Assembly: GCA_050250255.1 (NCBI GenBank)
Contig: JBFWOZ010000025.1
Coordinates: forward strand, 1-43,578
DNA: 43,578 nt
Direction: 5' to 3'
From: Bdellovibrionales bacterium
GTDB lineage: Bacteria; Bdellovibrionota; Bdellovibrionia; Bdellovibrionales; DASUEL01
Shown: positions 27,486 to 43,578 of the stretch, piece after piece
How the letters are laid out: the number at the start of each line of letters is the position of its first letter
Position numbering within the stretch: the first letter of the stretch is position 1
Position numbers and translations under genes: made by a program
Notes under the pieces: model-generated
The model's input: only the letters and a program-made list of their open reading frames with translations
Databases searched by the model: none
What the model was told of the DNA's origin: nothing

Positions 27486-27500
27486 TGGTCGGGGAGATGG
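27486..27500 (-). other. att site: isolated 3' fragment of a tRNA (Pro-type acceptor stem)
   Basis: Reverse complement CCATCTCCCCGACCA followed by a T-tract; no T-loop or 5' half; 67 bp from the integrase stop. Confidence 0.75.
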
Positions 27501-27567
27501 AAAAGCTCCTAACCCCTCGACTTTGTTACATTTCGAATATCGCAAGCAGCAAAAAGAAGCAAACCCT

Positions 27568-28668
27568 TTAACTCCTCTGGAATAACGGTAGTACAGTGCC
27601 TATAGCTTCGTTTGGAAGCTTATAGCCGAGCTTATCCGTTCCTCCTATGACCTCGACCCCTGCTTTTCTCAGGTAGCCATTTGTCGTCTTTAGTTGGCTG
27701 TGCCCAACCATCGACATGACCCGTGCTAAAGATTCGCCGCGCGACAGCAAATTGGTTATAAATGTCGCCCGCAGATCGTGAAACTTTATCGAGGTCACCC
27801 CTATGGCTTGGCAGAATTCGCGGGTAATCCGCGCTTGCTCGCCATTTTCCCACTCCAGGAATCTTGGCAGCACAGACTCTTCGTTTCCTCGTTTTAGCTT
27901 AAGTTCCTTCAAAAAGGTCATCAAGCTTTCAGAAATAGGTACGATTCGTGATCTCTGTGACTTTGTAGGACCAAAACCATTTTTGGAGGTCCATTGCTTC
28001 GACACCGAGATCGTTTTGTTCTCCAGGTCTATATCTGTCCAATTCAAAGCGTAGAGTTCTCCCGACCTCATTCCGGTCATAAGGGCGAGAGCCCATATGG
28101 GGTAAAAACGATGATCGGTATTCTTCGCTTCTTTTAAAAAGATATTAACTTCACTGTTGGTGAGAACATTCTGTTCAACTTCTGGAATCTTCACTTGAAT
28201 TCCTGAGCATGGGTTGCGATCAATAATTCCTTCACTGACCGCCATTTCAAAAAGACGTTTCACCATTTTTAAAACAGTTTTTCTGTGGCTAGCAGAAACA
28301 ATCTCGCCACATTTTTCAAAAATCAATTCATGTACGTCAGACCTCGTGATCTGCGCAAGTCCTTGATCTTTCCAATGTGGGTATACCCATTTCCGAATCT
28401 GGGAATGATAATTGATGACCGTAGAAGGTTTCATTTCGATCTTCATACGTTGCATACAAACATCAAACCATTCATGCCAACGAAAAGGCACATTCTCTTC
28501 TTTTAGCTTTGCAATTTCGCGTTTCAATTCGAACTCGATTTGCTGAGCCTTTCTAAGAGTATCAATGCCTGATCGCTTGCGCTGAATTCTGATTCCTCGT
28601 GAGTTAAATCCGTTCACATAAACTTCATACAGCTTCTTTCCATCTTCAATATAACTACGAACGGCCAT
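27568..28668 (-). CDS. Tyrosine recombinase / integrase
   Basis: TGMRSGEL, PTKS, FHDLRATF, MVGHS, TTNGY. Confidence 0.96.
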   Translation of the reverse strand: MAVRSYIEDGKKLYEVYVNGFNSRGIRIQRKRSGIDTLRKAQQIEFELKREIAKLKEENVPFRWHEWFDVCMQRMKIEMKPSTVINYHSQIRKWVYPHWKDQGLAQITRSDVHELIFEKCGEIVSASHRKTVLKMVKRLFEMAVSEGIIDRNPCSGIQVKIPEVEQNVLTNSEVNIFLKEAKNTDHRFYPIWALALMTGMRSGELYALNWTDIDLENKTISVSKQWTSKNGFGPTKSQRSRIVPISESLMTFLKELKLKRGNEESVLPRFLEWENGEQARITREFCQAIGVTSIKFHDLRATFITNLLSRGESLARVMSMVGHSQLKTTNGYLRKAGVEVIGGTDKLGYKLPNEAIGTVLPLFQRS

Positions 28669-28670
28669 GA

Positions 28671-28895
28671 TTAGGCTCCTTTCTTAAGGAAAAGAGCCCT
28701 GCAATCCAGTAACTTGAACCGCAGTCGTCGTCCGAATTTGTACACTTTGATCTGATCGCGATGGACCATGATTCTAAGTGCGTTCGGAGAGACTGACAGA
28801 AAGTGAGCTGCTTCTTTTGTAGAAAGCCACTCGCGTGCTATTCGATTTTCAATGAGCGAAAAGTCCGATACATCTTGGACTTTATTTGAACTCAT
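28671..28895 (-). CDS. Excisionase-like helix-turn-helix protein
   Basis: WLSTKEAAHFLSVSPNALR...KFGRRLRF; AGGAG RBS; directly upstream of int. Confidence 0.85.
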   Translation of the reverse strand: MSSNKVQDVSDFSLIENRIAREWLSTKEAAHFLSVSPNALRIMVHRDQIKVYKFGRRLRFKLLDCRALFLKKGA

Positions 28896-28983
28896 AATAC
28901 TCCTGGAAACCCTATCATTCAAGGGTTGTAAGGAATTTATATGATTCGTCTAGTAAAGCGATTTTTCATTTTTAAGAGCTAAA

Positions 28984-29433
28984 TTACGTACTCGTAGACT
29001 TGTCAACAACTTTATCTGTGGATAAGTCGCTCTGGGTCTTAGAGTTACGTTTTCTCTCTTTATCAACGATGCCGTAGTGCTCGCGTAATGCTTTTCTAAT
29101 CTCTTCAGGTAGCGCATTTGAATCCTCGGCACCGCGAAGCATGACGCTTAAAACTTTCTTATCATCAAAATGCAGATTCCTCATGGCTTTGGTATCATTA
29201 TCAGTAAAGAACTTCTCAAGATTTGAGAAAATGTAATTTGCAATATCAGACTTTGTAATTGTACCGGCATCAAAGCCATCGCCAACTTTCGCCACAACAC
29301 TTTCTAGAGCGACATTAGAGGATTTATTGATAATCACTCGAAACAGATCTTGTTCACTACCACCAACACCATTAGCCAGCTGATTTTTTTTCTTACTCTC
29401 TCTATTCTTAATTTCTAAATTAATATTATTCAT
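28984..29433 (-). CDS. Hypothetical protein (possible oriT-binding or regulatory accessory)
   Basis: 149-aa ORF with AGAAGG RBS; function inferred from position only. Confidence 0.65.
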   Translation of the reverse strand: MNNINLEIKNRESKKKNQLANGVGGSEQDLFRVIINKSSNVALESVVAKVGDGFDAGTITKSDIANYIFSNLEKFFTDNDTKAMRNLHFDDKKVLSVMLRGAEDSNALPEEIRKALREHYGIVDKERKRNSKTQSDLSTDKVVDKSTST

Positions 29434-29455
29434 AATCTATACCTTCTACCTTTTA

Positions 29456-29556
29456 CCACCGCCCATTTTTTTGTCACCAGGTCCTGACCCCTTCCACGAT
29501 ATTCGTTGAGGGGGAGGGGTCAGGACCGATCAGGTGACGGAACAAACGGGCGGCGG
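29456..29556. repeat. Extended imperfect inverted repeat; candidate oriT
   Basis: GGTCCTGACCCC / GGGGTCAGGACC core stem with outer GTCACC/GGTGAC and CCGCCC/GGGCGG; intergenic, just downstream of the relaxase-like gene. Confidence 0.8.
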
Positions 29557-29638
29557 CGGATTTTTTGTGATTGATTTCAATAAGTTCTATATCAAATAAA
29601 AACATTTAACCTGCTCACCTAGCTATTCCCACTGAGAA

Positions 29639-30334
29639 CTAAGTGGGAATAGCATCTTTGAGTACATTTACGGACTGCTGTCGCCATTGATTCAGAGTCA
29701 CGAAGGTCACTGAAATTTGCTTTGTCGGAAAATAAACGTGGTCCATCATTTCTTTAATCGCGCGTTCAATTGCTAGATCTTTGCAAATAAAAATGATGGA
29801 CCTAATGTGCTTCATGGCGGCGTAGGCGCTCAAAATCTGAACATATCGTTTTCGACTCTTAAGCGTCATTTCTAGTTCAATGGCTGCGAGGTATTCTTTG
29901 CTCGTGTCTTTGCAGGCTACGACAGCATCAGGGTACTTAATATAATCGCCTTGGCTTTGAATTAGAAAAGTCGTTTTGCCGTGCATTTTAAGTTCAGCTT
30001 CAGTCATCCATTTCGTAAGTGAACCAGCGCGCTCAGCTGTCATAATTCCACGAAGCAAAACTTCGTCATGAGTAAATTGAGAGATCGACGGCGCTTTTGC
30101 CGCCACCGATTGGACGGCCGAAATCACATTTTTGTTATAACGATTTAAAACCAAGACGTTTTTGACCCTCGAATTTGGATAGGGCATAAAATAGCCACGG
30201 TCTTGAAGCGCTTTCCAAGAAACATTCTTCCATCTCTTCGAGCCGCCTTGAAAAATGAACTCTTCCCAAAACTCTTTTGTTAAGAATCCTGTCTTGGCCG
30301 TAATAGAAACTGCTTTCTCTGGAAAGTGCTTCAA
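29639..30334 (-). CDS. PD-(D/E)XK replication-relaxation (MOBC-like) putative relaxase
   Basis: FTHDE, KYPDAVV...AIELEMTLKSRKRY; TTG start overlapping the previous TGA, GGAGGA RBS; last gene of the tra operon. Confidence 0.65.
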   Translation of the reverse strand: MKHFPEKAVSITAKTGFLTKEFWEEFIFQGGSKRWKNVSWKALQDRGYFMPYPNSRVKNVLVLNRYNKNVISAVQSVAAKAPSISQFTHDEVLLRGIMTAERAGSLTKWMTEAELKMHGKTTFLIQSQGDYIKYPDAVVACKDTSKEYLAAIELEMTLKSRKRYVQILSAYAAMKHIRSIIFICKDLAIERAIKEMMDHVYFPTKQISVTFVTLNQWRQQSVNVLKDAIPT

Positions 30335-30786
30335 TTTTCCTCCCAACGAGCGGGTTCAATAATAATATACTCAAAGTGTCCCTCAACAAAGCGATTGCCG
30401 ACAATTTTGCCTTCGACCCATCGAGACTCAACTTTCGGTTCTCGCAACGATGGAGGCGTGCCTTGTTTAGATTGAGGCACAGAAGCTTTTCCTTTTTGAA
30501 AAGCCTCACGTTTTTGTTTTTCGGTCGAATTAAAAATTGCGGAACCCGCAATCATACCCGCCATTCCGCCAAATGCGGAACCGACAACAACATTTCGAGT
30601 TCGGTACTCGCCATCTTTGCCTGGGTCCGCGATACCACCAAGCACCGCGCCAGTGCCGGCACCAATCGCACCGCCAAGACCTACGCTTTTTCCTTGAGTT
30701 GCACAGCCCATGAGCGAAAGTATAAGCGCTGCTATTTGAATCAGCGCAAAATAATAAATTGCGATCTTTTCATTTCGCTTAACCAT
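30331..30786 (-). CDS. Glycine-zipper lipoprotein of the conjugation operon (VirB7/TraV-like role possible)
   Basis: LMGC lipobox, GxxxG repeats. Confidence 0.7.
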   Translation of the reverse strand: MVKRNEKIAIYYFALIQIAALILSLMGCATQGKSVGLGGAIGAGTGAVLGGIADPGKDGEYRTRNVVVGSAFGGMAGMIAGSAIFNSTEKQKREAFQKGKASVPQSKQGTPPSLREPKVESRWVEGKIVGNRFVEGHFEYIIIEPARWEEN

Positions 30787-32399
30787 TAAATGCCTCTTTC
30801 GTTTAAAGAGTTTTGCTTGGAGTTAGACTTATCTTCTTCCATTAGGATTGAAAGACTTGTAGCTGACATTTTAGGCACCTTCTCAAGAGGAGATCCTTTC
30901 AGATCATCATACTTACGAAATCTAATATTGATGGCAGAGCTACCGGAGTCATGGGGCACAATCATGACAGCTTCTCCAACGCCCAATTCATTTTTAAATC
31001 TGTTGGGATGAACAATGAATTCCTCAACCTCTCGTGCCGAAACATCTCCGGTAGACTGCTCATCAATAAAACCCTTCTTTCTTCGCTCGGTGTATTTGGT
31101 GCCTTTGGCAGTACCAATTACTTTCGCAAAGTATTCAGCCGAGTCGGGATCATTGCCGCGCATAAATACTTTCAAATTGGCATTGGTCAGAATCGTATTC
31201 GAAATGGCATCACCCAAAGTTTTAATATCGCCAAGAGCTTGATGAGCAAAAACGATTCCCACATTTGCGCTCCTGGATTTATTAAGAACCGAAACAAAGC
31301 CTGGATAGAGGTACTCAGAAAAATCATCCAGAAACACCGAAAAGAATTTCTTGTTTTCGCTTGAGCCCCTATGTCGATTTGCTACCGCACTTTGAAGCGA
31401 TTGAAGAATCAATTTGCCCGAAGCTTTTCCAAGAAACGGCGAAAGCAAAACCGGTAGTTGAAAGTACACTATTAGATTTTTTTCTAGTGCATCTTCAAGT
31501 GTGATTGCCGGAGTTTCGGCATTAAAGAGACAAGCGGTTCGTCCAAACGCAAAGTGACTGATAGCAGCGGTCAATCCACTGGTTCTTTGCACGCGTTCAT
31601 TAGGTGGCAGGTCTCTAAAATATTCCGTCCACTCAATCAGAGCTTTGTCAGAAATATCCCGCGCCATTGCAACCAATGCCGGTGGCCGAGTGATCGCTTG
31701 GTGGATTCTTAAAAATGTCGGAATTTCTTTTTTAGCTTCAAAAACTCTTAGCACTTGGGAAAAGACTTCATACTGAAGACTTCTGTAATGTGGATTTTCG
31801 AATTCAAATGAATTAAATACTCTTTCCGCTATTTCTTCAGGTGTTCCACCGATAAGAGGATTAAATTGATGCGATTGTTCGATACTGCCCAGAGAGAAAA
31901 GTCTAAAATCCTTTTGTCGGCCGGATTTTTCAACATAAGCCCATAGCTTGTTAAGTAATGAGCTATCAGATTTACCGTCAATAAGAATTAATCCTCGTCC
32001 CTGTTCAATATCTTGAATCGCCCACGGTAGGATCACAGATTCGGTTTTTCCTGCGTTAGTCGTTCCAATAATTTGGGTATGCATAGAGCGCTGCTTAGTT
32101 TTAATAAAAACATTTTCATTTTTATCAGTTACCCCGCAGAACACAGCGTCTTCGGCTGGACCCAATATGGTCATTTGGTTTTTATTCTTTTCCTTCATCT
32201 TTTTTGTTCGTCGAAGGAAGAGATACATAAACCCAGCAAACAGACTGCCTACGAGTACCGAAAAAATAATTCTATGCTCGATTGGTTTGATCCAAACTAA
32301 AAACCAAACTATGAATTTATCAACCGCCGCTATAAGTGCAAATAATCCGGCGACAATTATAAGGTGATAGTCGTTTGAGGGTTTGGCTTTATTGTCCAT
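30786..32399 (-). CDS. Type IV coupling protein (VirD4/TraD-like)
   Basis: 2 N-terminal TM segments, HTQIIGTTNAGKT, IDGK, FNPL, FLDDF, NKSRSA, HQALGD. Confidence 0.9.
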   Translation of the reverse strand: MDNKAKPSNDYHLIIVAGLFALIAAVDKFIVWFLVWIKPIEHRIIFSVLVGSLFAGFMYLFLRRTKKMKEKNKNQMTILGPAEDAVFCGVTDKNENVFIKTKQRSMHTQIIGTTNAGKTESVILPWAIQDIEQGRGLILIDGKSDSSLLNKLWAYVEKSGRQKDFRLFSLGSIEQSHQFNPLIGGTPEEIAERVFNSFEFENPHYRSLQYEVFSQVLRVFEAKKEIPTFLRIHQAITRPPALVAMARDISDKALIEWTEYFRDLPPNERVQRTSGLTAAISHFAFGRTACLFNAETPAITLEDALEKNLIVYFQLPVLLSPFLGKASGKLILQSLQSAVANRHRGSSENKKFFSVFLDDFSEYLYPGFVSVLNKSRSANVGIVFAHQALGDIKTLGDAISNTILTNANLKVFMRGNDPDSAEYFAKVIGTAKGTKYTERRKKGFIDEQSTGDVSAREVEEFIVHPNRFKNELGVGEAVMIVPHDSGSSAINIRFRKYDDLKGSPLEKVPKMSATSLSILMEEDKSNSKQNSLNERGI

Positions 32400-33354
32400 A
32401 GGTCCCTCCAGGATCTCGAAACGTAAACGGCTGATTGATGACGGCTTGGGTTTCAGCACCAGCAGAAAGTTCAATCCATTTCTTTTCTTTACTCATATCT
32501 TCGGCCCACACGGTTGCTCGGTCTTTAGCTGTTTCCGCAACCGCATTTTTTAAACCATTTTCGTGACCGCCTTCCGAAGCACCCAACATCCCTGTGGACA
32601 TTGACCCCACTGCATAAGCGCCAATAAATTTTGTGAGTGTCTGTCCAAGAGTATTTTTAAGCGCCTCGGAATGTACTTTACCCTTAACGCCGACTTGTCC
32701 ATCATCAGAAATCCCCAAAGCTGAGATTTGCCGTTGTCGTCCATCAGGATAAACGATAGAACGCCAAGCGATTTGCGCTCGCTCAATCGACCCATCAAAA
32801 GAAGCTTCTCCGTATAGCTTCGCACCCTCTGGAATTGCCATGCTGTCATCATGATCGACTTCTTTTGTTACAACCCCAATGACGGGCATGGCTTGGCTTG
32901 CTACGGTCACTTGTTGCGTGAGACGGAGCCGCATTCGTGTACCAGGCGGAACTTGCGTTTTCGAATTCATCCCACCACGAGTTAAGATCATCGAACTGTT
33001 TTTGTCTTGCGACTTGTTGCCGCCACTACTCCCTTGATAGAGGTGATTGAGTGAAGATGGCGCGACACTTCGATTCAGTTGACCCTGCTGTAGCTGTGCC
33101 CAGGCATCCTCAGTGGGATTACTTGCGGCTACTTTGTCCGTAGAACCAGGCTCCGCTCTCTCATGAAAAACAGTTTCATCTGGTTTTGGAGTCGGCATCA
33201 ATAGCAACAAGACAACGGCAGTTACTACAACAAGGCTGCCAAAATTTCTCATGGCTTTCCAATTTAGATCTCGCTTGTTCGTGAAGGGCTTAGGCTCCTT
33301 CAGCACGGCTTTTGAAAGCCAGGCGTAAATGCTATTCTTTTTTGCTACTTCCAT
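32389..33354 (-). CDS. VirB10/TrbI-like conjugation core protein
   Basis: Single TM, low-complexity linker, VPPGT, IPEGAKLYG, DGQVGVKGKV. Confidence 0.75.
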   Translation of the reverse strand: MEVAKKNSIYAWLSKAVLKEPKPFTNKRDLNWKAMRNFGSLVVVTAVVLLLLMPTPKPDETVFHERAEPGSTDKVAASNPTEDAWAQLQQGQLNRSVAPSSLNHLYQGSSGGNKSQDKNSSMILTRGGMNSKTQVPPGTRMRLRLTQQVTVASQAMPVIGVVTKEVDHDDSMAIPEGAKLYGEASFDGSIERAQIAWRSIVYPDGRQRQISALGISDDGQVGVKGKVHSEALKNTLGQTLTKFIGAYAVGSMSTGMLGASEGGHENGLKNAVAETAKDRATVWAEDMSKEKKWIELSAGAETQAVINQPFTFRDPGGTYGQ

Positions 33355-34064
33355 GCGCTAACCTTTGGAATTGTGAGATATGAATTCTTTTTTCTTCTCA
33401 GCTCAACTCGTAATGTTTCTTGAAGATTCAAATCGTTTTTTATAATTTGAATCATTCCGTCGATAGGCTCATCAGGTCGCACTTCGAGATTAGACAAAAA
33501 TAAATTATGGATAGGCCGAGTTTGACCACCCTGAGTTAGCCAAAGCCAATCCGCTTTAACTTTTTCTTTTTTAAGTCCCAAAATTCGAAACTCAACTATG
33601 AGTATGCCGTCTTTAGTCTGTCCAAGGCGTTTGGTTTCAACAGTCAGTGCATCGTTTACAAGTTTGTTCTTAAAATTTGTCCAACGCAGACTAGGTTTCG
33701 CCTTTTTCTCTGGGGTCTTTGCGCTCTCAAGATAGACAACATAGTCGGCACTTAAAATATCGCCTGGAACCAACAGCACATTGAAGCGCTTCCAATCCGT
33801 ATAAATATACAAATTGCTTTTCGCTCCTCGATAAAGTGGTTTAATTGTTATCGCTTGATCTAAATACTCAACCTTGAAGGCTTCTTGATCGCCAACAACG
33901 ACACTGTTGGGCCGATCAGGTACTTGAATGATTGTCGCAATACCAACAGTGGTCTTAACGTTTACTATTTGGTCGCCCTCGACGGGCACATGGCGCACTT
34001 TTGCCCATGCGTCTATACAAAGAAACATAATAGGCAGTGTGATACCTAAAAGGAGTCGGAACAT
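33345..34064 (-). CDS. VirB9/TrbG-like conjugation protein
   Basis: Signal peptide, GIATIIQVP, VVGD, ITIKP, SNLYIYTD. Confidence 0.75.
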   Translation of the reverse strand: MFRLLLGITLPIMFLCIDAWAKVRHVPVEGDQIVNVKTTVGIATIIQVPDRPNSVVVGDQEAFKVEYLDQAITIKPLYRGAKSNLYIYTDWKRFNVLLVPGDILSADYVVYLESAKTPEKKAKPSLRWTNFKNKLVNDALTVETKRLGQTKDGILIVEFRILGLKKEKVKADWLWLTQGGQTRPIHNLFLSNLEVRPDEPIDGMIQIIKNDLNLQETLRVELRRKKNSYLTIPKVSAWK

Positions 34065-34128
34065 ATCAACCCTCTCTGTTACAAATTTTTTGGCATTTTC
34101 AAATGGAAAAACATTAGAGCCGTACGTA

Positions 34129-34713
34129 CTATTCTTCTTTTTCCTTAGTGATATACAGACCCCAAGGATTGTCCTTTGTTCTCGGTCCGCTCTCAAAACT
34201 AAGTTCTAATCGAAGATTACCAGCAGCCTTAAGTCCTTGGATGTCCGTTACGCGATCACCCTTTACAAAAACCGTTTTATTTTTGAGATTAACCTCCATG
34301 ACTTCTGGATAAACCCTTTGGGACACCAGTTTTTCTGTGGAAAATTTCGCCACGTTTGTTACGGCCGCTTGAAATGCGCTAAGACTACTAGAGAGTACAA
34401 ATGCTTGCGCATTTTTGAGTTTTTCCTGAACATTTTTAGGCTCCCATTTGTATCTCAGATCAATGTAGGCTTTAACCGCGGCACGAATTTGATCTTCGGC
34501 TTTTGGAGCTTCTCTTTGTTCTAGAACTGAAGCCGAAGTATCGAGTGTGAGTAAAACTGCGGGCCGTGTGGCCATCACAAAAAGTAATGCAAATACTAGT
34601 GTCACAAGAATAAGGGACAGTAGCGAAAACAGTTTTAAAAACTGATTAGAGTGGCGCAATTCTCCTAGCATTTCAGGTAATTTTCTTAATGTTAAGTTAA
34701 CAGTTTTTTCCAT
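34129..34713 (-). CDS. VirB8-like conjugation protein
   Basis: Single TM, C-terminal RTKDNPWGLYI motif. Confidence 0.75.
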   Translation of the reverse strand: MEKTVNLTLRKLPEMLGELRHSNQFLKLFSLLSLILVTLVFALLFVMATRPAVLLTLDTSASVLEQREAPKAEDQIRAAVKAYIDLRYKWEPKNVQEKLKNAQAFVLSSSLSAFQAAVTNVAKFSTEKLVSQRVYPEVMEVNLKNKTVFVKGDRVTDIQGLKAAGNLRLELSFESGPRTKDNPWGLYITKEKEE

Positions 34714-34723
34714 TTTTATTTCC

Positions 34724-35599
34724 TTAGAGTTTTGTAGATGGTTTGTATTTAAGTTTTTGAGCTTGGTCGCGCGCAAATGATCCGGTGTTAGAAAGAACAT
34801 TTCGACTGGTCATAGTTGTCATCGCGACCCGTGCGGGTGCTGCGACCATTGCGGCCACCGCAGAAGCGCCAAGTGTTGAGGACATTGCTTGAAATCCTGA
34901 TCCCACGATTGATTTTACAACCATCGGAGTTAGGAGCATTGCCACAGCGATAACGAAGTTCATTACGATAAGTGTTATGTAGTTTCCCTCGGCACGATAA
35001 GCGTCGCCAAAAGAAAGTGCGGTTAACATTGTGCCAAGGATGGCCCAAACAATTTTCCAGCTTGCGACTTCAATCATGCCTCGGAATAAATTCGCGGTAA
35101 TGCGGGTGGTACTCGAAAATACATTAAATAATAATAACAACGGAGCCGTCACCATAAAGAACGCCCAGAAGAAGTGATACATGGCTATGGTGATGTACCT
35201 TGCAATATACAAAACCAAGAAACTCAGAAACGAAAGCGTCGCAATTATCAAATCGTTGAACTGAAGTAACACGCTAGTTGGTGAAAGCGAATAATTTTGA
35301 GATTTCTCCTGAGCCATTCTAATAATCGTATCGAGGCTATTGAGATTATCAATTCTCTCGGTAATTCCGTCAGCCACAAACAAAATAGCTCGACTGATTT
35401 CTGGAAATGCAACCAATAAAACCGTTGCGGTTACGGTTCGCTTTAGAATATCCAGAAATTCAGAACTACCTTGAGGCGATCTAAACCATGCAACAGCAAT
35501 CGCCAGTGCGAAAAATACGGGCAACATGAGATAATAAATTTGCACAAACTCTTGATGCAAATTTGTCATTAGCGTGCCCAATAATTCAAACTGTGGCAT
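34724..35599 (-). CDS. VirB6-like polytopic membrane protein
   Basis: Multiple TM segments, APL, position between VirB5-like and VirB8-like genes. Confidence 0.7.
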   Translation of the reverse strand: MPQFELLGTLMTNLHQEFVQIYYLMLPVFFALAIAVAWFRSPQGSSEFLDILKRTVTATVLLVAFPEISRAILFVADGITERIDNLNSLDTIIRMAQEKSQNYSLSPTSVLLQFNDLIIATLSFLSFLVLYIARYITIAMYHFFWAFFMVTAPLLLLFNVFSSTTRITANLFRGMIEVASWKIVWAILGTMLTALSFGDAYRAEGNYITLIVMNFVIAVAMLLTPMVVKSIVGSGFQAMSSTLGASAVAAMVAAPARVAMTTMTSRNVLSNTGSFARDQAQKLKYKPSTKL

Positions 35600-35600
35600 A

Positions 35601-36311
35601 CTAATTTCCCCCTTGATTGATCGTCTGTAACTTTGTTTCTTTTGGAAGCTGACCAAGAGCTAAAGACAACCCGTCGTATTGCGTTTTAAACTGTGCCGAT
35701 TGCAGTTTTTCTCTTCTGTTTTGTAGAGCGGAGCTTTCGCCAAGCATTTTAAGCATCATGGAATTTGTTCTTAGAACTTGGGTGGACACACCAATTAGTA
35801 TTGCAATAGATTGAGCGATTAGCTTACCTGCACCTTGAGGGCTTACAACACGAGCGTGCTCGATAATTCTTTTGCTCTCGTCATCAGCTTGATCTGCAAA
35901 GGTGAATAAAGTTCCATTCATCGCAATGCTTTCTGCAACGGAACGATCTTGTGATTCTTGTAGTCTTGCCTCGGCCGTTTGGGGAATTCGACCATAAAGA
36001 TCATTGATAACTTTTAACACTTGATCAGCAGTATCGAGATTTCCATAGAGACCAGGATTGAATCTAGGATTAATGATTTGAATAATCGCTAAGCCTTCAC
36101 GAATCCCACGGTTAATATCTTGGAGTAAATCCAACGTATCGGACCCAGTTGTTAGAATTTGTCTCAGTTGAATCAATTGCTGAACTGCATTTGCCAAAAT
36201 TTGGACCAGCACTACCACATCACCTCCCCACATATCTGCGCGACTAGGTTGAGGGGCCATTAATGTTAAACTCAAGAGAGTGGCTAATATTCGTTTTTTG
36301 ATTTTACTCAT
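35601..36311 (-). CDS. VirB5/TrbJ-like secreted helical protein
   Basis: Signal peptide, Q-rich helical body, follows VirB4 with ATGA overlap. Confidence 0.6.
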   Translation of the reverse strand: MSKIKKRILATLLSLTLMAPQPSRADMWGGDVVVLVQILANAVQQLIQLRQILTTGSDTLDLLQDINRGIREGLAIIQIINPRFNPGLYGNLDTADQVLKVINDLYGRIPQTAEARLQESQDRSVAESIAMNGTLFTFADQADDESKRIIEHARVVSPQGAGKLIAQSIAILIGVSTQVLRTNSMMLKMLGESSALQNRREKLQSAQFKTQYDGLSLALGQLPKETKLQTINQGGN

Positions 36312-38821
36312 GCCTTCTCCTTTTTGCCGTTTGCAATCCCGTTGGGATACATTTCTGCCGACTGCTCGATTGCCGTCATTTGCGTTAAACCCTGACTTTT
36401 TAGTTTTTCGAGGTGCATGTTGTCCTGTGCATCGCTCGTCGAGAGCCAATATTCAAACGGACTTGGATTGATGCGAACAACTTGCCGATGGTCTCCTTCA
36501 ATCATGAATCCTTCAGAAAATTCGCCTTTGCGTTGTTCTAATGAACCGATAAGCGAAAGCTCTTGTGAGTTGAGCTTTAACGCTTGTTTTAAGACTTCGG
36601 AATCACCCCGCTGAAGCATGACAAACTTAGTCGCCGTATTATTGAGAATCGCGGGTCCAATGGGACTAGCAACAATTTCTTCGACACCTTGGGTGATGAA
36701 AGTAATTCCAGATCCGGTTTTTCTAAGGGTGCGCGCACAATACTCCATGAAACTTGAAGCCGCGTTACTTTTTAAAAGTTCCCAAGCTTCGTCCAAAATA
36801 ATTCGTTTTTTGCAGGACTTGTCTTTTTCCACTTGAGCTAAAATGAAATCCGTTAGAATCAAGATCATAACGCTCTGAAGATCGGGATAACTTGATAAGC
36901 CTTTGAGATCAAATGTGCAAATCGGCGCATCAGTTCTCAAGCTGCCTGGTCCATCTAGTAAGCGACCGTATGGTCTTTCTCCAGTCCACAGATAAAGCAT
37001 TTTAGAGATTGATTTCATCGACTCTTCTTTAAACGCCGAGAGGTACCTCGATAAATCACTTAGCGTCGGAACTTCGCGCTTTGCTCTTCTACTTTTATAA
37101 AGTTCGATAATCGCTTTTTCTAAGAGCGCGCGGTCGAGCTTCGGAAGTTTTGACTTATCATCTTCTGCCACCATGCTTTCAATGATTGCGAGTAGCGATT
37201 TCAATTTTTGATCGCTAGGCTCTTGGCTTGGATCAGAAATATCAAAAGGGTTGATACGATAATGGTCGGAGAGATTAACCTCCAAATACTGCCCACCAAG
37301 TGCTTCTGTTAGTTTTTTATAGGAACCTCCTATATCAATAATAAAAACACGAAGGTTTCTGGCGAGTTCCTGTAACAGAATGCAATTATTTAAGAAGCTC
37401 TTTCCGGCACCAGATGAGCCGGTGACCAAGCAATTATAATTTGGCAGTCCTGGATCAAACGGATTGTAGCTAATAAGCCCATTCATTCGGTTTCTAAAAA
37501 TGACTGCCGGATCTTTATCACCTTCGCGAGGTCCGTATACCGGAAGAAAATCTGCGAGATTATTAGTTTTCATCTTTCGCCCGCGCTCTAAACTTACGGG
37601 AGCGCATGGTAGTGAGCCCTTAACAATCTTCCAACTGCCGACGGTCTCCTCTAAACCTTCCGCGCCCTGTAAGGCGCGGAATCGCGAAAGTACATCTCTG
37701 ACCTGTCTGTTTAATTTTTTTGTTCCATCACTTGTATTAGGCGCTCTCAGCACTATACTCATTTGAGCCGCATAGATGCGTTGTCCCGAATTAAGGAGCT
37801 CACGAATCAACTCTTCTGTCGAAGAAAGCTTGGTTTCGCTCTCAAGATCGCTTGCCTTACCGCCGTGAGTTGCCGCAAGCGAGTGAGCCATTCGTCGCTT
37901 TTGCTGAAGTTTGGCCATTTCATCGGCTTGAGGTGGGACCTCAAGAGTCAAAATCAAATCATAGTGAAAGGGCATTCTCAAAAAATTTGATAACTGTCCT
38001 GCGAATGTCTGCTCAGGAAGAGTTTTTAAAGTGATGACCTTATGAAAATGGGAATCAAGCGTGAAATGGTCAAATCCCAGCAAGAGATCGCCGAAAACTA
38101 ATTGCTCTCTGGGTGACTGGGTTGCGAGCCAATCAGATTCCGCCAAAATTTCTTTTTCTAAATCTGTGTCTTCAGATGCCGTAATTTTCGGTAAAGGCTC
38201 TGTGATTGATCTCTTAGGATTTAGAAAGCCGTAAATATTGGCTAACAACTCTTGACGACTCAAAGACCGAGTTGAAAGTCCAATAGATTGAAATGTAGAC
38301 GCAAGGGATTCGAGATTCTGTCCTAAAAGTTCTAGCGTCTCTTCGTAAGCCTGACCTGCAAGATTTGAGAACAGTTCCTTCTTTTTCATAAATCCTGAAG
38401 ATTTGGCATCAACCATCTTTGTTCTAACAAAGATAAATAACTTCGGTCGATAGAGCTCACGATCCTCCAAGGCTGAATTTAAACGGGCATGTCGATAATC
38501 GGCAATTCGCTTAACCAACGGATGAATTTGGTCTATCTGTCCGTTTCGATGAGCGGTCAGCATTTCAGAAAAATCAGAACGCACAGTAAATAAAAACTGA
38601 AGCGATGTGTTTTCAGAAACAGAATTTAAAGCAGAGCGAAGGCCGACCGCAAATTGGTTGATTTTATTCTCATCAAAACATTCAATATCAATCAAAGAGA
38701 CGTGCAGCCCACTAACAAGTGAACCGTCATTTAGCACGGCGTGACCGCGTGGTTCTTCAATAAAGTCCCAATAAGGGAGCTCCTCTGCAAGAGGAGCATC
38801 GGCGAATTGTTTATTACTCAT
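36308..38821 (-). CDS. virB4: VirB4-family conjugation ATPase
   Basis: NCLVTGSSGAGKSF, IIDIGGSY, INPF, ILDEAW, RTLRK, FITQ. Confidence 0.92.
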   Translation of the reverse strand: MSNKQFADAPLAEELPYWDFIEEPRGHAVLNDGSLVSGLHVSLIDIECFDENKINQFAVGLRSALNSVSENTSLQFLFTVRSDFSEMLTAHRNGQIDQIHPLVKRIADYRHARLNSALEDRELYRPKLFIFVRTKMVDAKSSGFMKKKELFSNLAGQAYEETLELLGQNLESLASTFQSIGLSTRSLSRQELLANIYGFLNPKRSITEPLPKITASEDTDLEKEILAESDWLATQSPREQLVFGDLLLGFDHFTLDSHFHKVITLKTLPEQTFAGQLSNFLRMPFHYDLILTLEVPPQADEMAKLQQKRRMAHSLAATHGGKASDLESETKLSSTEELIRELLNSGQRIYAAQMSIVLRAPNTSDGTKKLNRQVRDVLSRFRALQGAEGLEETVGSWKIVKGSLPCAPVSLERGRKMKTNNLADFLPVYGPREGDKDPAVIFRNRMNGLISYNPFDPGLPNYNCLVTGSSGAGKSFLNNCILLQELARNLRVFIIDIGGSYKKLTEALGGQYLEVNLSDHYRINPFDISDPSQEPSDQKLKSLLAIIESMVAEDDKSKLPKLDRALLEKAIIELYKSRRAKREVPTLSDLSRYLSAFKEESMKSISKMLYLWTGERPYGRLLDGPGSLRTDAPICTFDLKGLSSYPDLQSVMILILTDFILAQVEKDKSCKKRIILDEAWELLKSNAASSFMEYCARTLRKTGSGITFITQGVEEIVASPIGPAILNNTATKFVMLQRGDSEVLKQALKLNSQELSLIGSLEQRKGEFSEGFMIEGDHRQVVRINPSPFEYWLSTSDAQDNMHLEKLKSQGLTQMTAIEQSAEMYPNGIANGKKEKA

Positions 38822-39138
38822 AATCTATTCCTTTTAAATTTTCTATAGAGACGATCCGCACCTCCAGCCGCTCGATAGGCTGGTTGCGCTAAATACTCGC
38901 CCAGGTGTTGCAAGAAACCGTCGGGTCTTCCTCGTTTCGCAAAGTAGAGGAACAACGCCAATCCCAGCGTTGTTCCCCATACCAGCGGGTAACGAAAAGA
39001 AGTGGTTCCAAAAATCAAATTTGTGATCGCGAGGTTAAAAAAGATCAGCAAAAGGTCTGGCAGTTCATAACCAAATAATTTGCTTTTCATTTCTAGTGCG
39101 CGCGGCACTTTCGTGGTCAAAAGTCCTTGTTCTTCCAT
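38818..39138 (-). CDS. VirB3-like membrane protein
   Basis: 106 aa, 2 TM segments, KLFG, KRGRPDGFL; between pilin and VirB4. Confidence 0.7.
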   Translation of the reverse strand: MEEQGLLTTKVPRALEMKSKLFGYELPDLLLIFFNLAITNLIFGTTSFRYPLVWGTTLGLALFLYFAKRGRPDGFLQHLGEYLAQPAYRAAGGADRLYRKFKRNRL

Positions 39139-39147
39139 GCTGGTCTC

Positions 39148-39441
39148 CTAACGAACCGTTTGCGAAATAAAATCCACAATGGCTTGCGCTCCAAATCCAA
39201 AAATACAACCCAGTACCGCATAGACGATGTGCTGTTTTGCATTTGGATTGCCTGTAAAAAATGAGATTGCGGCAATCGCGATCCCAATGACAGAAAGCAA
39301 AGGCAAAATAACTCCTGTGAGCTTGGTCTTAATTCCCATGAGACTTGATTCAAGTCCGGCATGTGCCAATTCTGGAAAACAGATATGCATTGCCAAAAAC
39401 GCCACGAACAAAAAACCAAAAGTGCGTAAATTCATACTCAT
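39148..39441 (-). CDS. TrbC/VirB2-family pilin
   Basis: Signal peptide ending PELAHA, two hydrophobic helices, FGAQAIV. Confidence 0.85.
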   Translation of the reverse strand: MSMNLRTFGFLFVAFLAMHICFPELAHAGLESSLMGIKTKLTGVILPLLSVIGIAIAAISFFTGNPNAKQHIVYAVLGCIFGFGAQAIVDFISQTVR

Positions 39442-39469
39442 TCCTGCTCCGTTGTTAGTTGTTTTAAAC

Positions 39470-39898
39470 TCAAGCCACATACTCAAGATCCTCCAGCTCA
39501 ACACTGTGAGTGGATTGGGTTGAAGATTCGGGAAAAATACTCATGTAGATGGGCTTCTCAAACAAGTCGAAATCAAAACGAATAATGCCGTGTAAGGAAT
39601 CGGCCTGACCGTTGCCAACAATATTCCAGTAGTATTTATTTTTACTATTTGGATTTTTGTTAGGCTCTCTAGTCATGACAAGGTACCTCGAAGGATCGTT
39701 TTTGCTCGTAATGATGTAAAAGCGATCATTGAGAAATGTCCAAAGCCTAAGAGTGTAAGTGCTTTGACCTTCTTTTAAATAGGCCATTCCGACACTCTTG
39801 TTTTTTTCAAACTTATTGTCTTTCGTGAGAGTTCCCTGAGCGACTTGAAAGCGATAAAATTTCGATGGTTTGTTTTGCTGTACTAAATTGGTTTCCAT
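39470..39898 (-). CDS. Hypothetical protein with an internal duplicated beta-rich motif (possible ssDNA-binding)
   Basis: AAGGAG RBS; KSVGMAY...YTLRLWTF and NIVGNGQ...IRFDFDLF. Confidence 0.65.
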   Translation of the reverse strand: METNLVQQNKPSKFYRFQVAQGTLTKDNKFEKNKSVGMAYLKEGQSTYTLRLWTFLNDRFYIITSKNDPSRYLVMTREPNKNPNSKNKYYWNIVGNGQADSLHGIIRFDFDLFEKPIYMSIFPESSTQSTHSVELEDLEYVA

Positions 39899-40061
39899 TA
39901 ATATCTCCTTGGTTAAAAATAAAATTACTTTTCTGCATGGCGAGCCATTCATCTGTGCTCATCCACTTTGTTTGGTTTCCAGTTTTCACACGTATGAGAG
40001 TTGAAGCTCTCGTTCTCGCAATTCGTTTAATAATTGAAGCGGTTCGGTTTAAGCCGCGCAT
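39813..40061 (-). CDS. Possible small basic protein
   Basis: Fills the gap between two co-oriented genes but overlaps the next by 86 bp. Confidence 0.3.
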   Translation of the reverse strand: MRGLNRTASIIKRIARTRASTLIRVKTGNQTKWMSTDEWLAMQKSNFIFNQGDINGNQFSTAKQTIEILSLSSRSGNSHERQ

Positions 40062-40315
40062 AAGACGTCCGATTTGAACTTGTCATCTTCTTCGCACCAG
40101 CCGCACGCTCCGCAAATGGGTTTGCGTAACTCTACTTGTGATTGCTGTTCACATTCCGGGCATTGCAGCCAACCCAGTGTTTCAAATCGGTAGGAATCAA
40201 CCTCTATGTTTTGAAGATTGATTTCAAAAATGTCTCTGACACCGTAACCTTCATCGAGCAGTATTCGATCCACCCAAAATCGTCCAATGCGTTTGATTCT
40301 TCGCCGTCTTCTCAT
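40049..40315 (-). CDS. Small Arg-rich double-CxxC zinc-ribbon protein, first gene of the tra operon
   Basis: AAGGAGGTG RBS; MRRRRRIKR, CPEC...CGACGWC. Confidence 0.75.
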   Translation of the reverse strand: MRRRRRIKRIGRFWVDRILLDEGYGVRDIFEINLQNIEVDSYRFETLGWLQCPECEQQSQVELRKPICGACGWCEEDDKFKSDVLCAA

Positions 40316-40459
40316 CGTCACCTCCTTTCGCGCCAACAGGCGCAGTTGAAGGAAGTAAGAAAAGCAACAATGGGCCACATGCCATGTGGTGAGTGGCTGA
40401 TAAGTGCTACTGAGCAATTTCAAATACTTAGATGGATTTGAGTTAATTTTTGTTTGAAT

Positions 40460-40519
40460 AAACCCCTGCAGCTTGCAGGGGTTTTGCGATACAAAACTAC
40501 TGCAAAGGTGCAGGGGTTA
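40460..40519. promoter_or_regulatory. Two tandem dyad sites (half-site AAC[C/T][C/A]CTGCA), operator-like
   Basis: AAACCCCTGCA-gct-TGCAGGGGTTT and AAAACTACTGCA-aagg-TGCAGGGGTTA. Confidence 0.7.
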
Positions 40520-40532
40520 AAGATATTAAAAC

Positions 40533-40561
40533 TTTACATTCAAAAATACTCCAGCTAGCAT
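40533..40561 (+). promoter_or_regulatory. Putative sigma70 promoter
   Basis: TTTACA-N17-TAGCAT. Confidence 0.6.
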
Positions 40562-40565
40562 TTAA

Positions 40566-40730
40566 GATAGTTGGCTATCAATAATTCTCTGTGAGGAACT
40601 GATAGTTGGTAACTACTCGACTACAAGCACTCAGGAATAATCCCAGTGGGAACTCTTGAATACGCTAAGTAGCACCCGAGGCAACATAGCTAGTTCAGTG
40701 AATTGGCTAATAAATTTTCTAAAAATTTAA
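40566..40730 (+). ncRNA. Putative structured leader RNA or sRNA
   Basis: Nested stems CTCG/CGAG, CTAC/GTAG, AGC/GCT, TCAGGA/TCTTGA, TCCC/GGGA; hairpin 40687-40709; G-U pairs favour the + strand. Confidence 0.45.
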
Positions 40731-40751
40731 TTTTCTACCAGGAGAAAACTT

Positions 40752-40850
40752 ATGCAAAAGGTTTTGCTTGGCTATGGCATTGCCATGACTGTTGCTCTCG
40801 GAATGGTTTTGGTTTTACTTCTAGCCATATTCGTTTACGTGAGTTTATAA
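40752..40850 (+). CDS. 32-aa hydrophobic peptide MQKVLLGYGIAMTVALGMVLVLLLAIFVYVSL (below the ORF-track cutoff)
   Basis: AGGAGA RBS, ATG to TAA, followed by a strong hairpin. Confidence 0.7.
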   Translation: MQKVLLGYGIAMTVALGMVLVLLLAIFVYVSL

Positions 40851-40861
40851 AATTGCTATTT

Positions 40862-40893
40862 CCCGCACGTCCTTTTTAAAAAGGGCGTGCGGG
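40862..40893 (+). terminator. Strong hairpin after the peptide ORF (no U-tract; terminator or stability element)
   Basis: CCCGCACGTCCTTT-ttaa-AAAGGGCGTGCGGG. Confidence 0.55.
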
Positions 40894-40909
40894 CATCTAA
40901 AATATCCCA

Positions 40910-40937
40910 TAACCCCTGCAGACACTGCAGTAGTTTT
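40910..40937. promoter_or_regulatory. Third dyad site, inverted copy of 40493-40519
   Basis: TAACCCCTGCA-gacac-TGCAGTAGTTTT. Confidence 0.7.
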
Positions 40938-41116
40938 TGGTGTCATTTAGTCACTAAATTAAATCTATTGAGTTTAAATTGTAAGTCCTTCAATTGGTAT
41001 GTCAGATCAAATATAAGACATAGGAATCATTAAATATTTTCGTAAATTTGACTTCTTTATTACAGGGCGATACATCGGTTTCTGGGATTGGCCTACATTT
41101 CGCTCTTGGGGGAGCT

Positions 41117-42679
41117 ATGAAGAGTGCCATGAGTTTAAAAAATTTCAGTTCTTTCGTTTTATTCACCCTAGTCACCACATCCTGTACGAAGGGCAATCCG
41201 ACCAACGAGGTTTTGAATCAAACCTACGTAAAGGCAATCTACGCCCTTCCGCCAACATTAGATCCCATCCTCATGAACGATACGGCATCGTTGCTTGTTT
41301 CCAATCTGATTTATGAAGGCTTACTAAGATTTACTTCAGATTTGCAATTCGAAGGGGCGCTTGCTGAATCATGGTCAGTTGATCCAAGTGGAAAGCGTTA
41401 TGAGTTTATTCTTCGCGAAAACATAAAATTTCACGATGGTAGTAAAATCACTGCGCAAGATGTTGTGCGATCATTAACACGAGCTGTATCGCCACAAAGC
41501 ACGGTTTATAAATATTATGACTGCATCGTCGGTGCGGAAGACTATTTCAATAAAAAAGCAAAAACGGTTAATGGACTTAGAGCAGGCGCCGATAATAAAG
41601 TTGTCATTGAGCTTAAACTCCCGTTTCCTCCATTTTTATCTGTACTTGCCGGAGCCACTGCAAAGGTCCTTCCTGCGGCAGCAGAAAATCCAAGATTTTT
41701 TATAAGTCCTGTTGGGGCGGGTCCATTTAAGTTTGTGAGCAAATTAAAAAATAAAAATGGAAATGACGAATTACATCTTGAAAAATTTGAACAGTATGCT
41801 GGTACTCAACCAAAAATCTCAAAATTGATTCTGCGATCTCTTTCGGAAGCGGATGCTCTTAAGCAAGCTTCTGATGGTAGCATCTACGACTTAGCTAATT
41901 TCCCACTCTCAGGAAAAGAAGAAGTATTTAAAACGGGCGTCGATATGCACGCACCTGTGGCGGCAACTTGGATTATTGGTCTGAATACGAGAAAGCCACC
42001 CTTTAATGACGTAAATATTCGGAAAGCTTTTCGCGCCGCCGTTGATGCGGAAAGCTTTCGAAGTACATTCTATCCCGACGCAATACCTGCAAATGGTTAC
42101 ATTCCAAAAGGCTTACCTGGGTATCTCGAAAGTAATAAAGTTGTTGATGGATTACAAAAGCCACCTGCACATAAACAAATCACAGTCGTCTTTCCAGAAG
42201 TGTTAGATCGCCAAGTAGAAATGCGTTCACATCTAGAAAAATCCTTACGACAAAAGGGATGGAGTGTTTCTTTTGTGGCTATGGGTTGGGATAAACTCAT
42301 GGCGGGTTACGATAGGAAAACTCATCAAGCTTTTGTCGTGTCTATGAATATGGATTATCCCGACACCGAATTTTTGATTCGAAATTTTGAATCAAACAAT
42401 CCAGATAATTTTAGTGGACTGTCAGACGCGCGTCTCGACGGCTGGATAAGAGAAGCTAGATCCACACAAGATCGTCTGCGCCGTGGAGAAATCTATAAGA
42501 ATATCGTCACTCGACTGAATGACCTTGCAGTGACAGTCAATCTGTTTCATCCACGCGCTCATAATTGGGTAAGTCATTGCGTGAAAGATTTTGTTCCCAA
42601 TATTTTAGCCGACTACTATATCGACTATCGAAAAATAGAATTAGACGTTAATTGTATTGCGAAAGTTCAGCTATTATGA
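41117..42679 (+). CDS. Family 5 (OppA/DppA-like) substrate-binding lipoprotein
   Basis: TTSC lipobox, PTLDP, IYEGL, LAESW, KFHDGSKITAQDV, PVGAGPFKF, LNTRKPPF, DYPD. Confidence 0.92.
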   Translation: MKSAMSLKNFSSFVLFTLVTTSCTKGNPTNEVLNQTYVKAIYALPPTLDPILMNDTASLLVSNLIYEGLLRFTSDLQFEGALAESWSVDPSGKRYEFILRENIKFHDGSKITAQDVVRSLTRAVSPQSTVYKYYDCIVGAEDYFNKKAKTVNGLRAGADNKVVIELKLPFPPFLSVLAGATAKVLPAAAENPRFFISPVGAGPFKFVSKLKNKNGNDELHLEKFEQYAGTQPKISKLILRSLSEADALKQASDGSIYDLANFPLSGKEEVFKTGVDMHAPVAATWIIGLNTRKPPFNDVNIRKAFRAAVDAESFRSTFYPDAIPANGYIPKGLPGYLESNKVVDGLQKPPAHKQITVVFPEVLDRQVEMRSHLEKSLRQKGWSVSFVAMGWDKLMAGYDRKTHQAFVVSMNMDYPDTEFLIRNFESNNPDNFSGLSDARLDGWIREARSTQDRLRRGEIYKNIVTRLNDLAVTVNLFHPRAHNWVSHCVKDFVPNILADYYIDYRKIELDVNCIAKVQLL

Positions 42680-43578
42680 CCTCGCAAACTTTTGCCAGAC
42701 ATGTTTACTCGGCGCTAAAACCATATAGAATTGGAATTCCGATAGCGGTTTCTATCGGTGCTGGACTGTTGGTAGCTGTTTCAATACTCTTTCTAAGAGC
42801 TAATTCTGATTATCACCTAATACGAGCAATAGCACCTCACGTATCAACTCTTGTTGAGACACAGGACCGAGCCGAAATATTGCGAATGTTGAACTCAATT
42901 GCCAAAGAGCGCGGTGTGGAACTCACTCTTGTGCAAAGTGATTCTGTTATTAGCAGTTCAAAATCTGTTAGCGAGATGGATTTGGGCTTTTCGTCACCGA
43001 AAGCGCTGCTAGATTTTGACAGAACAATTATTTCTCGGGATAGCATCGTAACGTCTACATCTGTCGCACGCGAGAATGGCCCGTTTCTGAATTCACAGAT
43101 TTATATATTTTCCCCTCTAAAACCCATTTTACTTTCATGCTTAATCTTAGCACTTGCTGTGTTGGCCTTATCATTCACTGCAAGTCAAATTTATGCGCTT
43201 AAAATTGCAAGAACCATAAAACAGTCACTGCTTCCGATTGAAGAATTAGATCAAGCGATTCGAGAATTATTGATTCGTAAAGATGATACGTTGTTTTCAC
43301 CGACAGGTATTTTGGAGCTTGATAGTATCAGGCAGTCGTTAATTGAAACTCAAAGAGCTCTTAGCGATGCGACAGATCGTCTAGCGCAGAATAAAGCCAA
43401 ATCTCTGGTCGCCGATAGTTACAAAAGACTTATACATGATCTCTATACGCCGATCGCGGCTTTTAGAGAAACTATAAAAGATGTTGACCATACTCAGCTC
43501 GACTCTTCAGCTCTAGAAAAGAGCGCTTCAAAAATTTCCCGTCTTGCTGAACAAATTCTAAATCAGGTCAGTGCCGGA
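42676..43578 (+). CDS. Sensor histidine kinase, truncated by the window end (absent from the ORF track)
   Basis: Open frame MTSQTFARH... with ATGA overlap; 2 TM segments, HAMP-like segment, H-box RLIHDLYTPI. Confidence 0.85.
   Translation, partial: MTSQTFARHVYSALKPYRIGIPIAVSIGAGLLVAVSILFLRANSDYHLIRAIAPHVSTLVETQDRAEILRMLNSIAKERGVELTLVQSDSVISSSKSVSEMDLGFSSPKALLDFDRTIISRDSIVTSTSVARENGPFLNSQIYIFSPLKPILLSCLILALAVLALSFTASQIYALKIARTIKQSLLPIEELDQAIRELLIRKDDTLFSPTGILELDSIRQSLIETQRALSDATDRLAQNKAKSLVADSYKRLIHDLYTPIAAFRETIKDVDHTQLDSSALEKSASKISRLAEQILNQVSAG

Follow-up and report, generated by a model that had tools for sequence, protein, structure and literature searches.

Peptide pheromones that control conjugation have been described for Gram-positive elements. 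In the agr system, a peptide precursor, a maturing membrane enzyme, a kinase and a regulator share one self-activated operon. Sensing by AgrC is described in PMC8534201, as is the LuxP-LuxQ pair of the Vibrio LuxP-LuxQ-LuxU-LuxO pathway, in which a periplasmic binding protein is docked on a sensor kinase; the output passes through LuxO, a sigma54 activator according to its NCBIfam description. The elements pCF10 (iCF10/cCF10-PrgZ-PrgX) and ICEBs1 (RapI-PhrI) encode secreted precursors that give rise to short C-terminal peptides, and a family-5 binding protein and the control of conjugation genes belong to the same picture (PMC6540685). Carboxyl methylation by enzymes of the ICMT family is known for a peptide pheromone, the yeast a-factor, through Ste14/ICMT (PMC2134810), and for a bacterial lipid, through RhlM (PMC11069360). 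Here, we analyzed a stretch of 43,578 nucleotides (nt), hereafter the window, which is the entire contig JBFWOZ010000025.1 (C25) of the 3.09-Mb genome of a Bdellovibrionales bacterium. It carries the transfer genes of an integrative conjugative element (ICE) and, next to them, the start of a six-gene cassette that combines traits of all these systems. As judged from sequence comparison and structural modelling, it is likely that a self-made peptide signal controls both conjugation and the cassette operon itself.

A six-gene cassette beside the transfer genes

The cassette runs across the window end onto a second contig (C43, our locus L033), whose start corresponds to the final 243 nt of the window (99.6% identity; base 1 of L033 is window position 43336). 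A public contig of 40,975 nt, which may come from the sample of this genome, spans window positions 38500-43578 with the same single difference as C43 and continues for at least 12 kb; the exact 49-aa precursor described below is also recorded on a contig of this length. The six genes are, in order (lengths in amino acids, aa):

41129-42679 (alternative start 41117), + strand: family-5 (DppA/OppA-fold) binding protein, 516 aa (PF00496, E 1.6e-53)
42676-43578, + strand: sensor histidine kinase of about 454 aa, of which the window holds the first 301; its end, carrying the ATPase domain, lies at L033:1-705
L033:708-2093: NtrC-type sigma54 activator, 461 aa
L033:2090-2950: alpha/beta serine hydrolase, 286 aa, cytoplasmic
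L033:2947-3096: secreted precursor, 49 aa, ending in GDPGP, the putative source of the signal
L033:3099-3653: ICMT-family (ICMT/PEMT) methyltransferase, 184 aa

On C43, the genes overlap or sit a few bases apart. We compared the cassette with 77 related loci, 66 of them non-redundant; binding-protein relatives with names come from Bdellovibrionales, Bacteriovoracaceae, Oligoflexia and further Bdellovibrionota. Within Bdellovibrionota, the order of five cassette proteins (binding protein, kinase, activator, hydrolase and methyltransferase) is kept in most loci of sufficient length; among the exceptions are L066 and L068 (kinase with no adjoining activator), L096-L098 (rearranged), L083 and L053, which has an insertion. 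This insertion of 1.7 kb lies within the kinase match, and L137 carries one of 3 kb within the hydrolase match.

Among the 36 loci with transfer genes or long flanks, 27 have homologues of these genes no more than about 10 kb from the cassette. In 15 of these they are divergent (two on weak VirB4 matches), in 11 downstream and in one arranged otherwise. Of the 384 genomes examined from the order, 16 have the cassette, a patchy spread that fits a mobile element. The window itself contains:

27568-39898, - strand: transfer and integration module (Pfam and NCBIfam matches)
40049-40315, - strand: leading gene of the transfer operon, an 88-aa CxxC...CxxC protein (open reading frame, ORF, with a strong Shine-Dalgarno sequence, SD)

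The module comprises a 142-aa ORF, VirB2 pilin, a VirB3-like protein (so labelled by gene position alone), VirB4, VirB6-like, VirB8, VirB9 and VirB10 proteins, a coupling protein, a MobC-type relaxase, an HTH_17 protein and a tyrosine integrase; the VirB6, VirB9 and relaxase matches fall under curated cut-offs. By its gene content, with integrase, relaxase (match below the model cut-off), coupling protein and mating-pair genes all present, the element is an ICE. Twelve relatives have an ORF of 75-94 aa with CxxC...CxxC at the place of the leading gene. The 88-aa protein itself has no notable family match in Pfam, NCBIfam or PHROG, and it could be a second-tier activator.

A first-pass annotation of the window had proposed a peptide communication module on an ICE, with an orphan binding protein as co-receptor of a kinase and a link to transfer, and this outline is supported. 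The translational coupling it noted is present as an ATGA overlap of the binding-protein and kinase genes at 42676-42679, the tra operon (VirB2, VirB4, VirB8-10, coupling protein, integrase) is indeed divergent, and the 27 loci with adjoining transfer genes agree with an ICE context. No permease gene lies between binding protein and kinase, as had been stated, and none follows past the window end on C43. Similarly, four host permease queries matched none of the 77 related loci, the sole related match being an ABC ATPase in L077; the host has Opp/Dpp-type operons elsewhere, on C3 and C12. As for the annotated binding lipoprotein, the family-5 fold holds, but the lipoprotein signal is non-canonical (Cys19 following VTTS), and the Cys is missing from many relatives.

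A secreted precursor with a conserved C-terminal end

The likely signal gene is the downstream 49-aa precursor beyond the window end, and not a 32-aa ORF inside the window, which the first-pass annotation had taken for it. Comparison of the loci places a signal-peptide precursor between the hydrolase and methyltransferase genes in 44 of 45 non-redundant loci with both enzymes. The filter behind this count required Gln near residue 19; with that requirement dropped, a precursor was found in 52 of 56 redundant loci, and two of the misses had no methyltransferase match. The precursors measure 37-130 aa, and their conservation is confined to the signal peptide and the C-terminal end. Pro stands at position -3 in 45/45 precursors compared with 28/707 control ORFs, Gly at -2 in 38/45, and Ile, Val or Pro at -1 in 43/45. 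Conserved C-terminal residues, as expected of precursors in RRNPP systems, are found in this protein and not in the 32-aa ORF.

A profile search returned 24 proteins, with Pro at -3 in all 17 inspected, a result partly built into the profile. Among ten stretches fetched later, a precursor was present in 8/8 of those with both enzymes (L134 and L109 are one contig, and L137 is probably the same element as L057). The alignment shows no conserved Cys. Within residues 13-19, an invariant Gln at about residue 19 marks the end of the signal peptide and may be the recognition site for one of the two enzymes. In L109 (15070-15345), precursor genes occur in tandem, ending in HPGV and HPGA.

Binding protein and kinase

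The closest relatives of the binding protein share 62-64% identity with it. By sequence it is closest to DppA/GbpA, with PrgZ distant (E 1.5e-30 vs 2e-43 for DppA), and its model (pLDDT 92.6) matches the DppE, OppA and DppA structures about equally. At the position of DppA Arg355, which we take to be the anchor of the ligand carboxylate, 62/62 sequences have Leu, Ile or Phe; an alignment gap lies near, so that the register is not certain. This role agrees with the title of PDB entry 8z1z (R383D+D436R, assuming the numbering offset). Asp409, in contrast, is present in 62/62 sequences and aligned to DppA Asp408, which makes a salt bridge to the bound peptide's amino terminus (PMC3295651). Compared with DppA and OppA, the protein has kept the amine-binding Asp, but neither the carboxylate-binding Arg nor a cognate ABC permease.

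The kinase has no receiver; two membrane helices flank its periplasmic domain, which is about 110 aa long. When the binding protein was modelled together with kinase residues 40-152, the predicted complex scored 0.83, compared with 0.00 for the best of three controls. Of 157 solved pairs, 116 came up to the mark used for such scores, as did 2 of 215 mismatched pairs. The runs agreed in 98% of contacts with a partner pLDDT of at least 84, and the interface residues of the kinase are more conserved than the remainder of the domain (0.65 vs 0.42). The binding protein is predicted to dock on the periplasmic domain of the kinase, which argues for sensing outside rather than for import, and we infer that it is a peptide receptor and kinase partner. 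The pCF10 mechanism, on which the first-pass annotation had drawn, is not borne out in this respect: sensing appears to take place at the membrane through the kinase and a sigma54 activator, rather than by a peptide that is imported and meets an RRNPP protein.

The peptide sensed might also be a foreign one. In a two-signal system as in pCF10, a peptide from outside (recipients, prey, host turnover) would be sensed, and the element's own x-Pro-Gly peptide would act only as its antagonist. The tail has diversified little across distant elements, the protein shares its fold with broad peptide binders, and iCF10, expressed from the induced promoter, serves as a brake (PMC6540685). We nevertheless consider this arrangement unlikely. 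The pocket residues are invariant and include no carboxylate-binding Arg position, which better suits a dedicated, modified ligand, and the enzymes of the cassette travel with the type of tail, as shown next.

The hydrolase and the methyltransferase

The methyltransferase matches the solved ICMT structures 4a2n (E 3e-7) and 5v7p (E 4e-7). Residues H128, P129, Y131, R164 and E168 of its HPxY and R-x3-E motifs are invariant in 35 sequences. By analogy with these enzymes it would methylate a carboxylate using S-adenosylmethionine. In the hydrolase, Ser99 and His257 are invariant and the consensus has no signal peptide; its best solved matches are proline iminopeptidases, closely followed by esterases.

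Both enzymes appear to be tied to the last residue of the tail. In two of the three other loci whose precursor ends in Pro, hydrolase and methyltransferase are 45-55% identical to those of the window element, while the remaining loci reach at most 22% (hydrolase) and 33% (methyltransferase). Similarly, one hydrolase column holds Leu in 4/4 Pro-ending loci and Trp in 39/40 Ile/Val-ending loci. L051, one of these two loci, has a hydrolase, peptide and methyltransferase that resemble those of the window element, but its binding protein falls into a different clade; a module swap is likely there.

Alternatively, the hydrolase-fold protein could act with the methyltransferase to make a small-molecule signal, e.g. 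a fatty-acid methyl ester, with the precursor as an accessory. RhlA has the hydrolase fold, Ralstonia uses a methyl-ester signal, and esterases are among the hydrolase matches. In addition, rhlM is located directly downstream of rhlA and its product makes lipid methyl esters; carboxyl methylation is thus proven for one bacterial ICMT, and in the model of this enzyme a conserved His and a conserved Glu lie at the cofactor (PMC11069360). We rate this explanation as quite unlikely, because it leaves unexplained why precursors of 37-130 aa have an invariant Pro at -3 of a free C-terminus, why the amine-binding Asp is kept, and why both enzymes co-vary with the last residue.

Promoters and palindromic boxes

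The region between the cassette and the transfer operon contains the following sites:

41089-41104, + strand: canonical sigma54 -24/-12 site of the six-gene cassette, TGGCCTACATTTCGCT, third-best score in the host genome
40910-40937, no strand: third palindromic box, centre 165 bp 5' of the cassette sigma54 site
40460-40519, no strand: twin palindromic boxes, AAC(C/T)(C/A)CTGCA-N3-4-TGCAG(G/T)(G/A)GTT, 34 bp apart
40363-40377, - strand: sigma54-like element TGGC-CC-N4-TTGCT, one base short, candidate promoter of the transfer operon

The first-pass annotation had named none of these sites. A canonical sigma54 site precedes the binding-protein gene in 44 of 57 non-redundant loci (vs 15 of 548 control windows), and GAFTGA is found in 45/45 activators. 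From their placement, the twin boxes would be activator sites for the transfer promoter and the third box an enhancer. The window's box type has six matches in the genome: one at enhancer distance, two ahead of the transfer operon, two on the small contig C72 and a weak one elsewhere. Relatives carry their own, element-specific palindromes about 150-190 bp 5' of the cassette sigma54 site, and L045 and L050 have twin boxes in the corresponding position, with a distance of 33 bp between them. A box of class A accompanies 15 of 16 activators with a 'SEAT' recognition helix and 0 of 22 others.

Between the boxes and the first transfer gene lies the short element, TGGCAC-N4-TTGCW. It is found 53-63 nt 5' of the CxxC leader gene in 13/13 cases, window included (three loci with no called leader gene are left out of this count), the normal form in 0/13; loci fetched later show the short element in 4/4. 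The GG-GC distance is nine bases in 13/13 transfer elements compared with ten in host sites, and strict matches in host intergenic regions comprise 14 with normal spacing and none with the short one. Ahead of transfer genes in relatives, a sigma54 site of normal spacing occurs in one of 38 regions, far upstream. The genome has a single rpoN, on C61, and no second, element-borne sigma54. Our literature search on short sigma54 spacing, including keyword look-ups in PMC4591121 and PMC11704786, gave no account for or against such sites.

The link between cassette and transfer could also be incidental, the cassette being self-regulating cargo that happens to adjoin transfer genes. Nine long-flank loci have no transfer homologues nearby, and the transfer element is abnormally spaced. 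We find this very unlikely, as seven relatives (L036, L045, L049, L050, L086, L089 and L091) and the window each repeat their own type of box in front of the transfer operon, even where as much as about 3 kb of cargo has been inserted between, and as all 13 cases retain the short element.

Another unit of the genome carries the same boxes. Contig C72 (L034) overlaps the window start by 148 nt. The unit (L034:160-1781 and window 70-2167) combines twin boxes of the window type with a 149-aa ORF and a Replic_Relax relaxase. A sigma54-like site of normal spacing, read by eye and under the matrix threshold, lies about 100 bp from the boxes. Located 3' of the relaxase are a hairpin 80% like that at window 29483-29524 and a serine recombinase, the frame of which runs into a tRNA-Arg. 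The C72 unit resembles a small mobilisable element responding to the activator of the cassette.

A proposed circuit

Taken together, we propose the following course. The methyltransferase would turn the free C-terminal carboxyl of the precursor into a methyl ester; the peptide is probably methylated, although both the ester and the sign of control are deduced. The precursor would then be exported, and trimming from the N-terminal side would stall at Pro, so that about four residues are left, DPGP in this case. The binding protein, to judge from the pocket residues kept and lost, would grip it by its free amine with no need for a free carboxylate, and is predicted to dock on the periplasmic domain of the kinase, outside the inner membrane. 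From what is known of the family, the kinase would set the phosphorylation of the activator. Given the shared boxes, the activator may bind the palindromes and fire both the cassette sigma54 promoter and the short transfer promoter. The hydrolase, which seems to recognise the last residue, might remove the ester or trim the peptide. The agr-like layout of a self-activated operon suggests activation, and by this analogy we lean slightly towards the peptide switching the circuit on rather than off. The conjunction of all specific parts, i.e. a methyl-esterified tetrapeptide made by an ICMT-type enzyme, read by a DppA-fold protein and kinase, a transfer promoter one base short, and a second element listening, is tentative and rather less likely to hold in full than to fail in some part.

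Several observations weigh against this circuit. At the level of the receptor, the interface residues of the binding protein are not conserved above the protein average (0.65 vs 0.62), and no binding-protein column convincingly followed the variable tail residue. The tail itself is little diversified (EPGI in 18/45), and L097 has shortened enzyme genes with no precursor between them. The matches between boxes and recognition helices and between enzymes and tails are clade-bound and represent few independent events by a quick tree, two or three in the case of enzymes and tail. At the level of output, the canonical site is absent by the rule used in 13 of 57 loci, the kinase of L066 and L068 has no neighbouring activator, and the short element is not seen in most of the 11 loci whose transfer genes lie downstream. 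The transfer element is one base under the normal sigma54 spacing, and such an element presumably should not fire. Finally, nine of the 36 loci have no homologues of the window's transfer genes within about 10 kb (one of them, L002, carries other conjugation genes), and 30 loci are too short to judge this neighbourhood.

The 32-residue ORF upstream of the cassette

Upstream of the cassette sigma54 site, the window contains:

40533-40561, + strand: sigma70-like promoter candidate for the 32-aa gene (9/12 consensus match)
40752-40850, + strand: 32-aa single-helix membrane peptide, MQKVLL...AIFVYVSL, with AGGAG seven bases 5' of the ATG
40862-40893, no strand: hairpin 3' of the ORF, with no U tract (z -6.9 alone)

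The first-pass annotation had described this hydrophobic ORF with a good ribosome-binding site, and it is there as described. A genome-wide rule (AGGAG-led, 25-45 aa, strongly hydrophobic) picked out this one ORF compared with none in three mononucleotide shuffles, and it is probably a real gene. The same annotation had placed a promoter and a structured leader in front of it. A 9/12 promoter match exists, but with four such sites in the scan against 2.5 +/- 1.6 by chance it does not stand above expectation. The leader is structured when 40565-40900 is folded as a whole (z -6.1), but its first 136 nt (z -0.67) and the stretch around the start (z -2.1) contribute little, the signal coming mostly from the 3' hairpin. 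This hairpin is not among the terminator-scan matches, and no Rfam family matched the leader near the cut-off.

According to the earlier proposal, this ORF would be the pheromone precursor and its last 7-8 residues the signal. It is the sole SD-led hydrophobic ORF of the genome, the activator boxes lie on either side of it, and 14 bp separate the twin boxes from its promoter candidate. We nevertheless regard this as the least probable of the explanations, since no homologue turned up in the related loci or genomes searched and a conserved precursor is encoded elsewhere in the operon. Such an absence from relatives is what the first-pass annotation had itself named as speaking against its proposal. 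There was no tblastn match in the 77 related loci or ten further stretches (the DNA around the closest binding-protein relatives is outside these searches), and no similar ORF lies 5' of the binding protein in the scanned loci, the four hydrophobic ORFs seen there being unrelated. Searches of 400 genomes of the phylum gave short, chance-level DNA matches only. HMMER over 1.84 billion representatives gave none, self included, and is a weak test for a short, biased query; the Atlas yielded only leads under 0.82, and Pfam, NCBIfam and PHROG no match. The slot itself varies from 259 to 8,344 bp in 15 relatives of the same layout and is empty or filled by unrelated genes. On these grounds, a conserved pheromone encoded by the 32-aa ORF was rejected.

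Most likely, the 32-aa gene is local, element-specific cargo. The peptide is hydrophobic, with a long leader and a start within a predicted hairpin, and a putative role as a type I toxin or a small modulator of the kinase is more likely than one as a pheromone precursor; it could also be an extra, element-specific inhibitor. The best sigma70-like match of the region (10/12), at 41005-40978 on the - strand, is directed back across the hairpin to the ORF, and an antisense RNA is possible from this consensus match.

Surroundings of the element

Directly past the integrase lies a nucleotidyltransferase and HEPN-like pair (window 26769-27453, - strand), likely a toxin-antitoxin pair. No common repeat of 13 nt or more was found between window 25900-27700 and C43, so that the element ends were not located; C37 or sequence past it may contain the far end. 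Cargo genes at C43:14800-26400 have second copies, 64-80% identical, on the small contigs C77, C85, C88 and C90, and related integrases are found on C80 and C76, which points to additional elements of the same kind in the genome. The scans made of viral contigs revealed no relatives of the locus.

Comparison with known systems

Unlike pCF10 and ICEBs1, the cassette has no RRNPP receptor or import step: its matches comprise only the binding protein, kinase, activator, hydrolase and ICMT families, in addition to the precursor. A membrane kinase and a sigma54 activator take this place, and there are a dedicated methyltransferase and hydrolase and a Gram-negative host. The cassette also differs from LuxPQ, by the family-5 fold, a non-hybrid kinase with no phosphotransfer protein, signal genes within the operon and a location on a mobile element. 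The LuxO model gives the activator 234 bits (cut-off 800), and neither a LuxP-type protein nor a hybrid kinase is present. In contrast to agr, the cassette has no thiolactone Cys and no AgrB, for which none of its proteins gave a match, but a Sec-type signal peptide, a separate binding protein and a sigma54 output. The precursor has neither the CAAX cysteine nor the prenyl group of a-factor, and the substrate would be a peptide and not a lipid as in the case of RhlM. In the literature searched, largely outside subscription journals and with supplements excluded, we found no description of such a peptide circuit or of a bacterial ICMT acting on a peptide.

If true, a circuit in a Gram-negative phylum would widen the rule of pheromone-controlled conjugation. 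It would also give a bacterial ICMT a peptide substrate, make a family-5 binding protein a kinase co-receptor, and provide a conserved natural exception to sigma54 spacing. The prediction is readily testable, with a ligand candidate of four or five residues, a soluble receptor and both promoter candidates mapped to the base. Altogether, the cassette resembles pCF10 and ICEBs1 in purpose, agr in layout, LuxPQO in wiring and a-factor in its inferred chemistry, and is a member of none of them.

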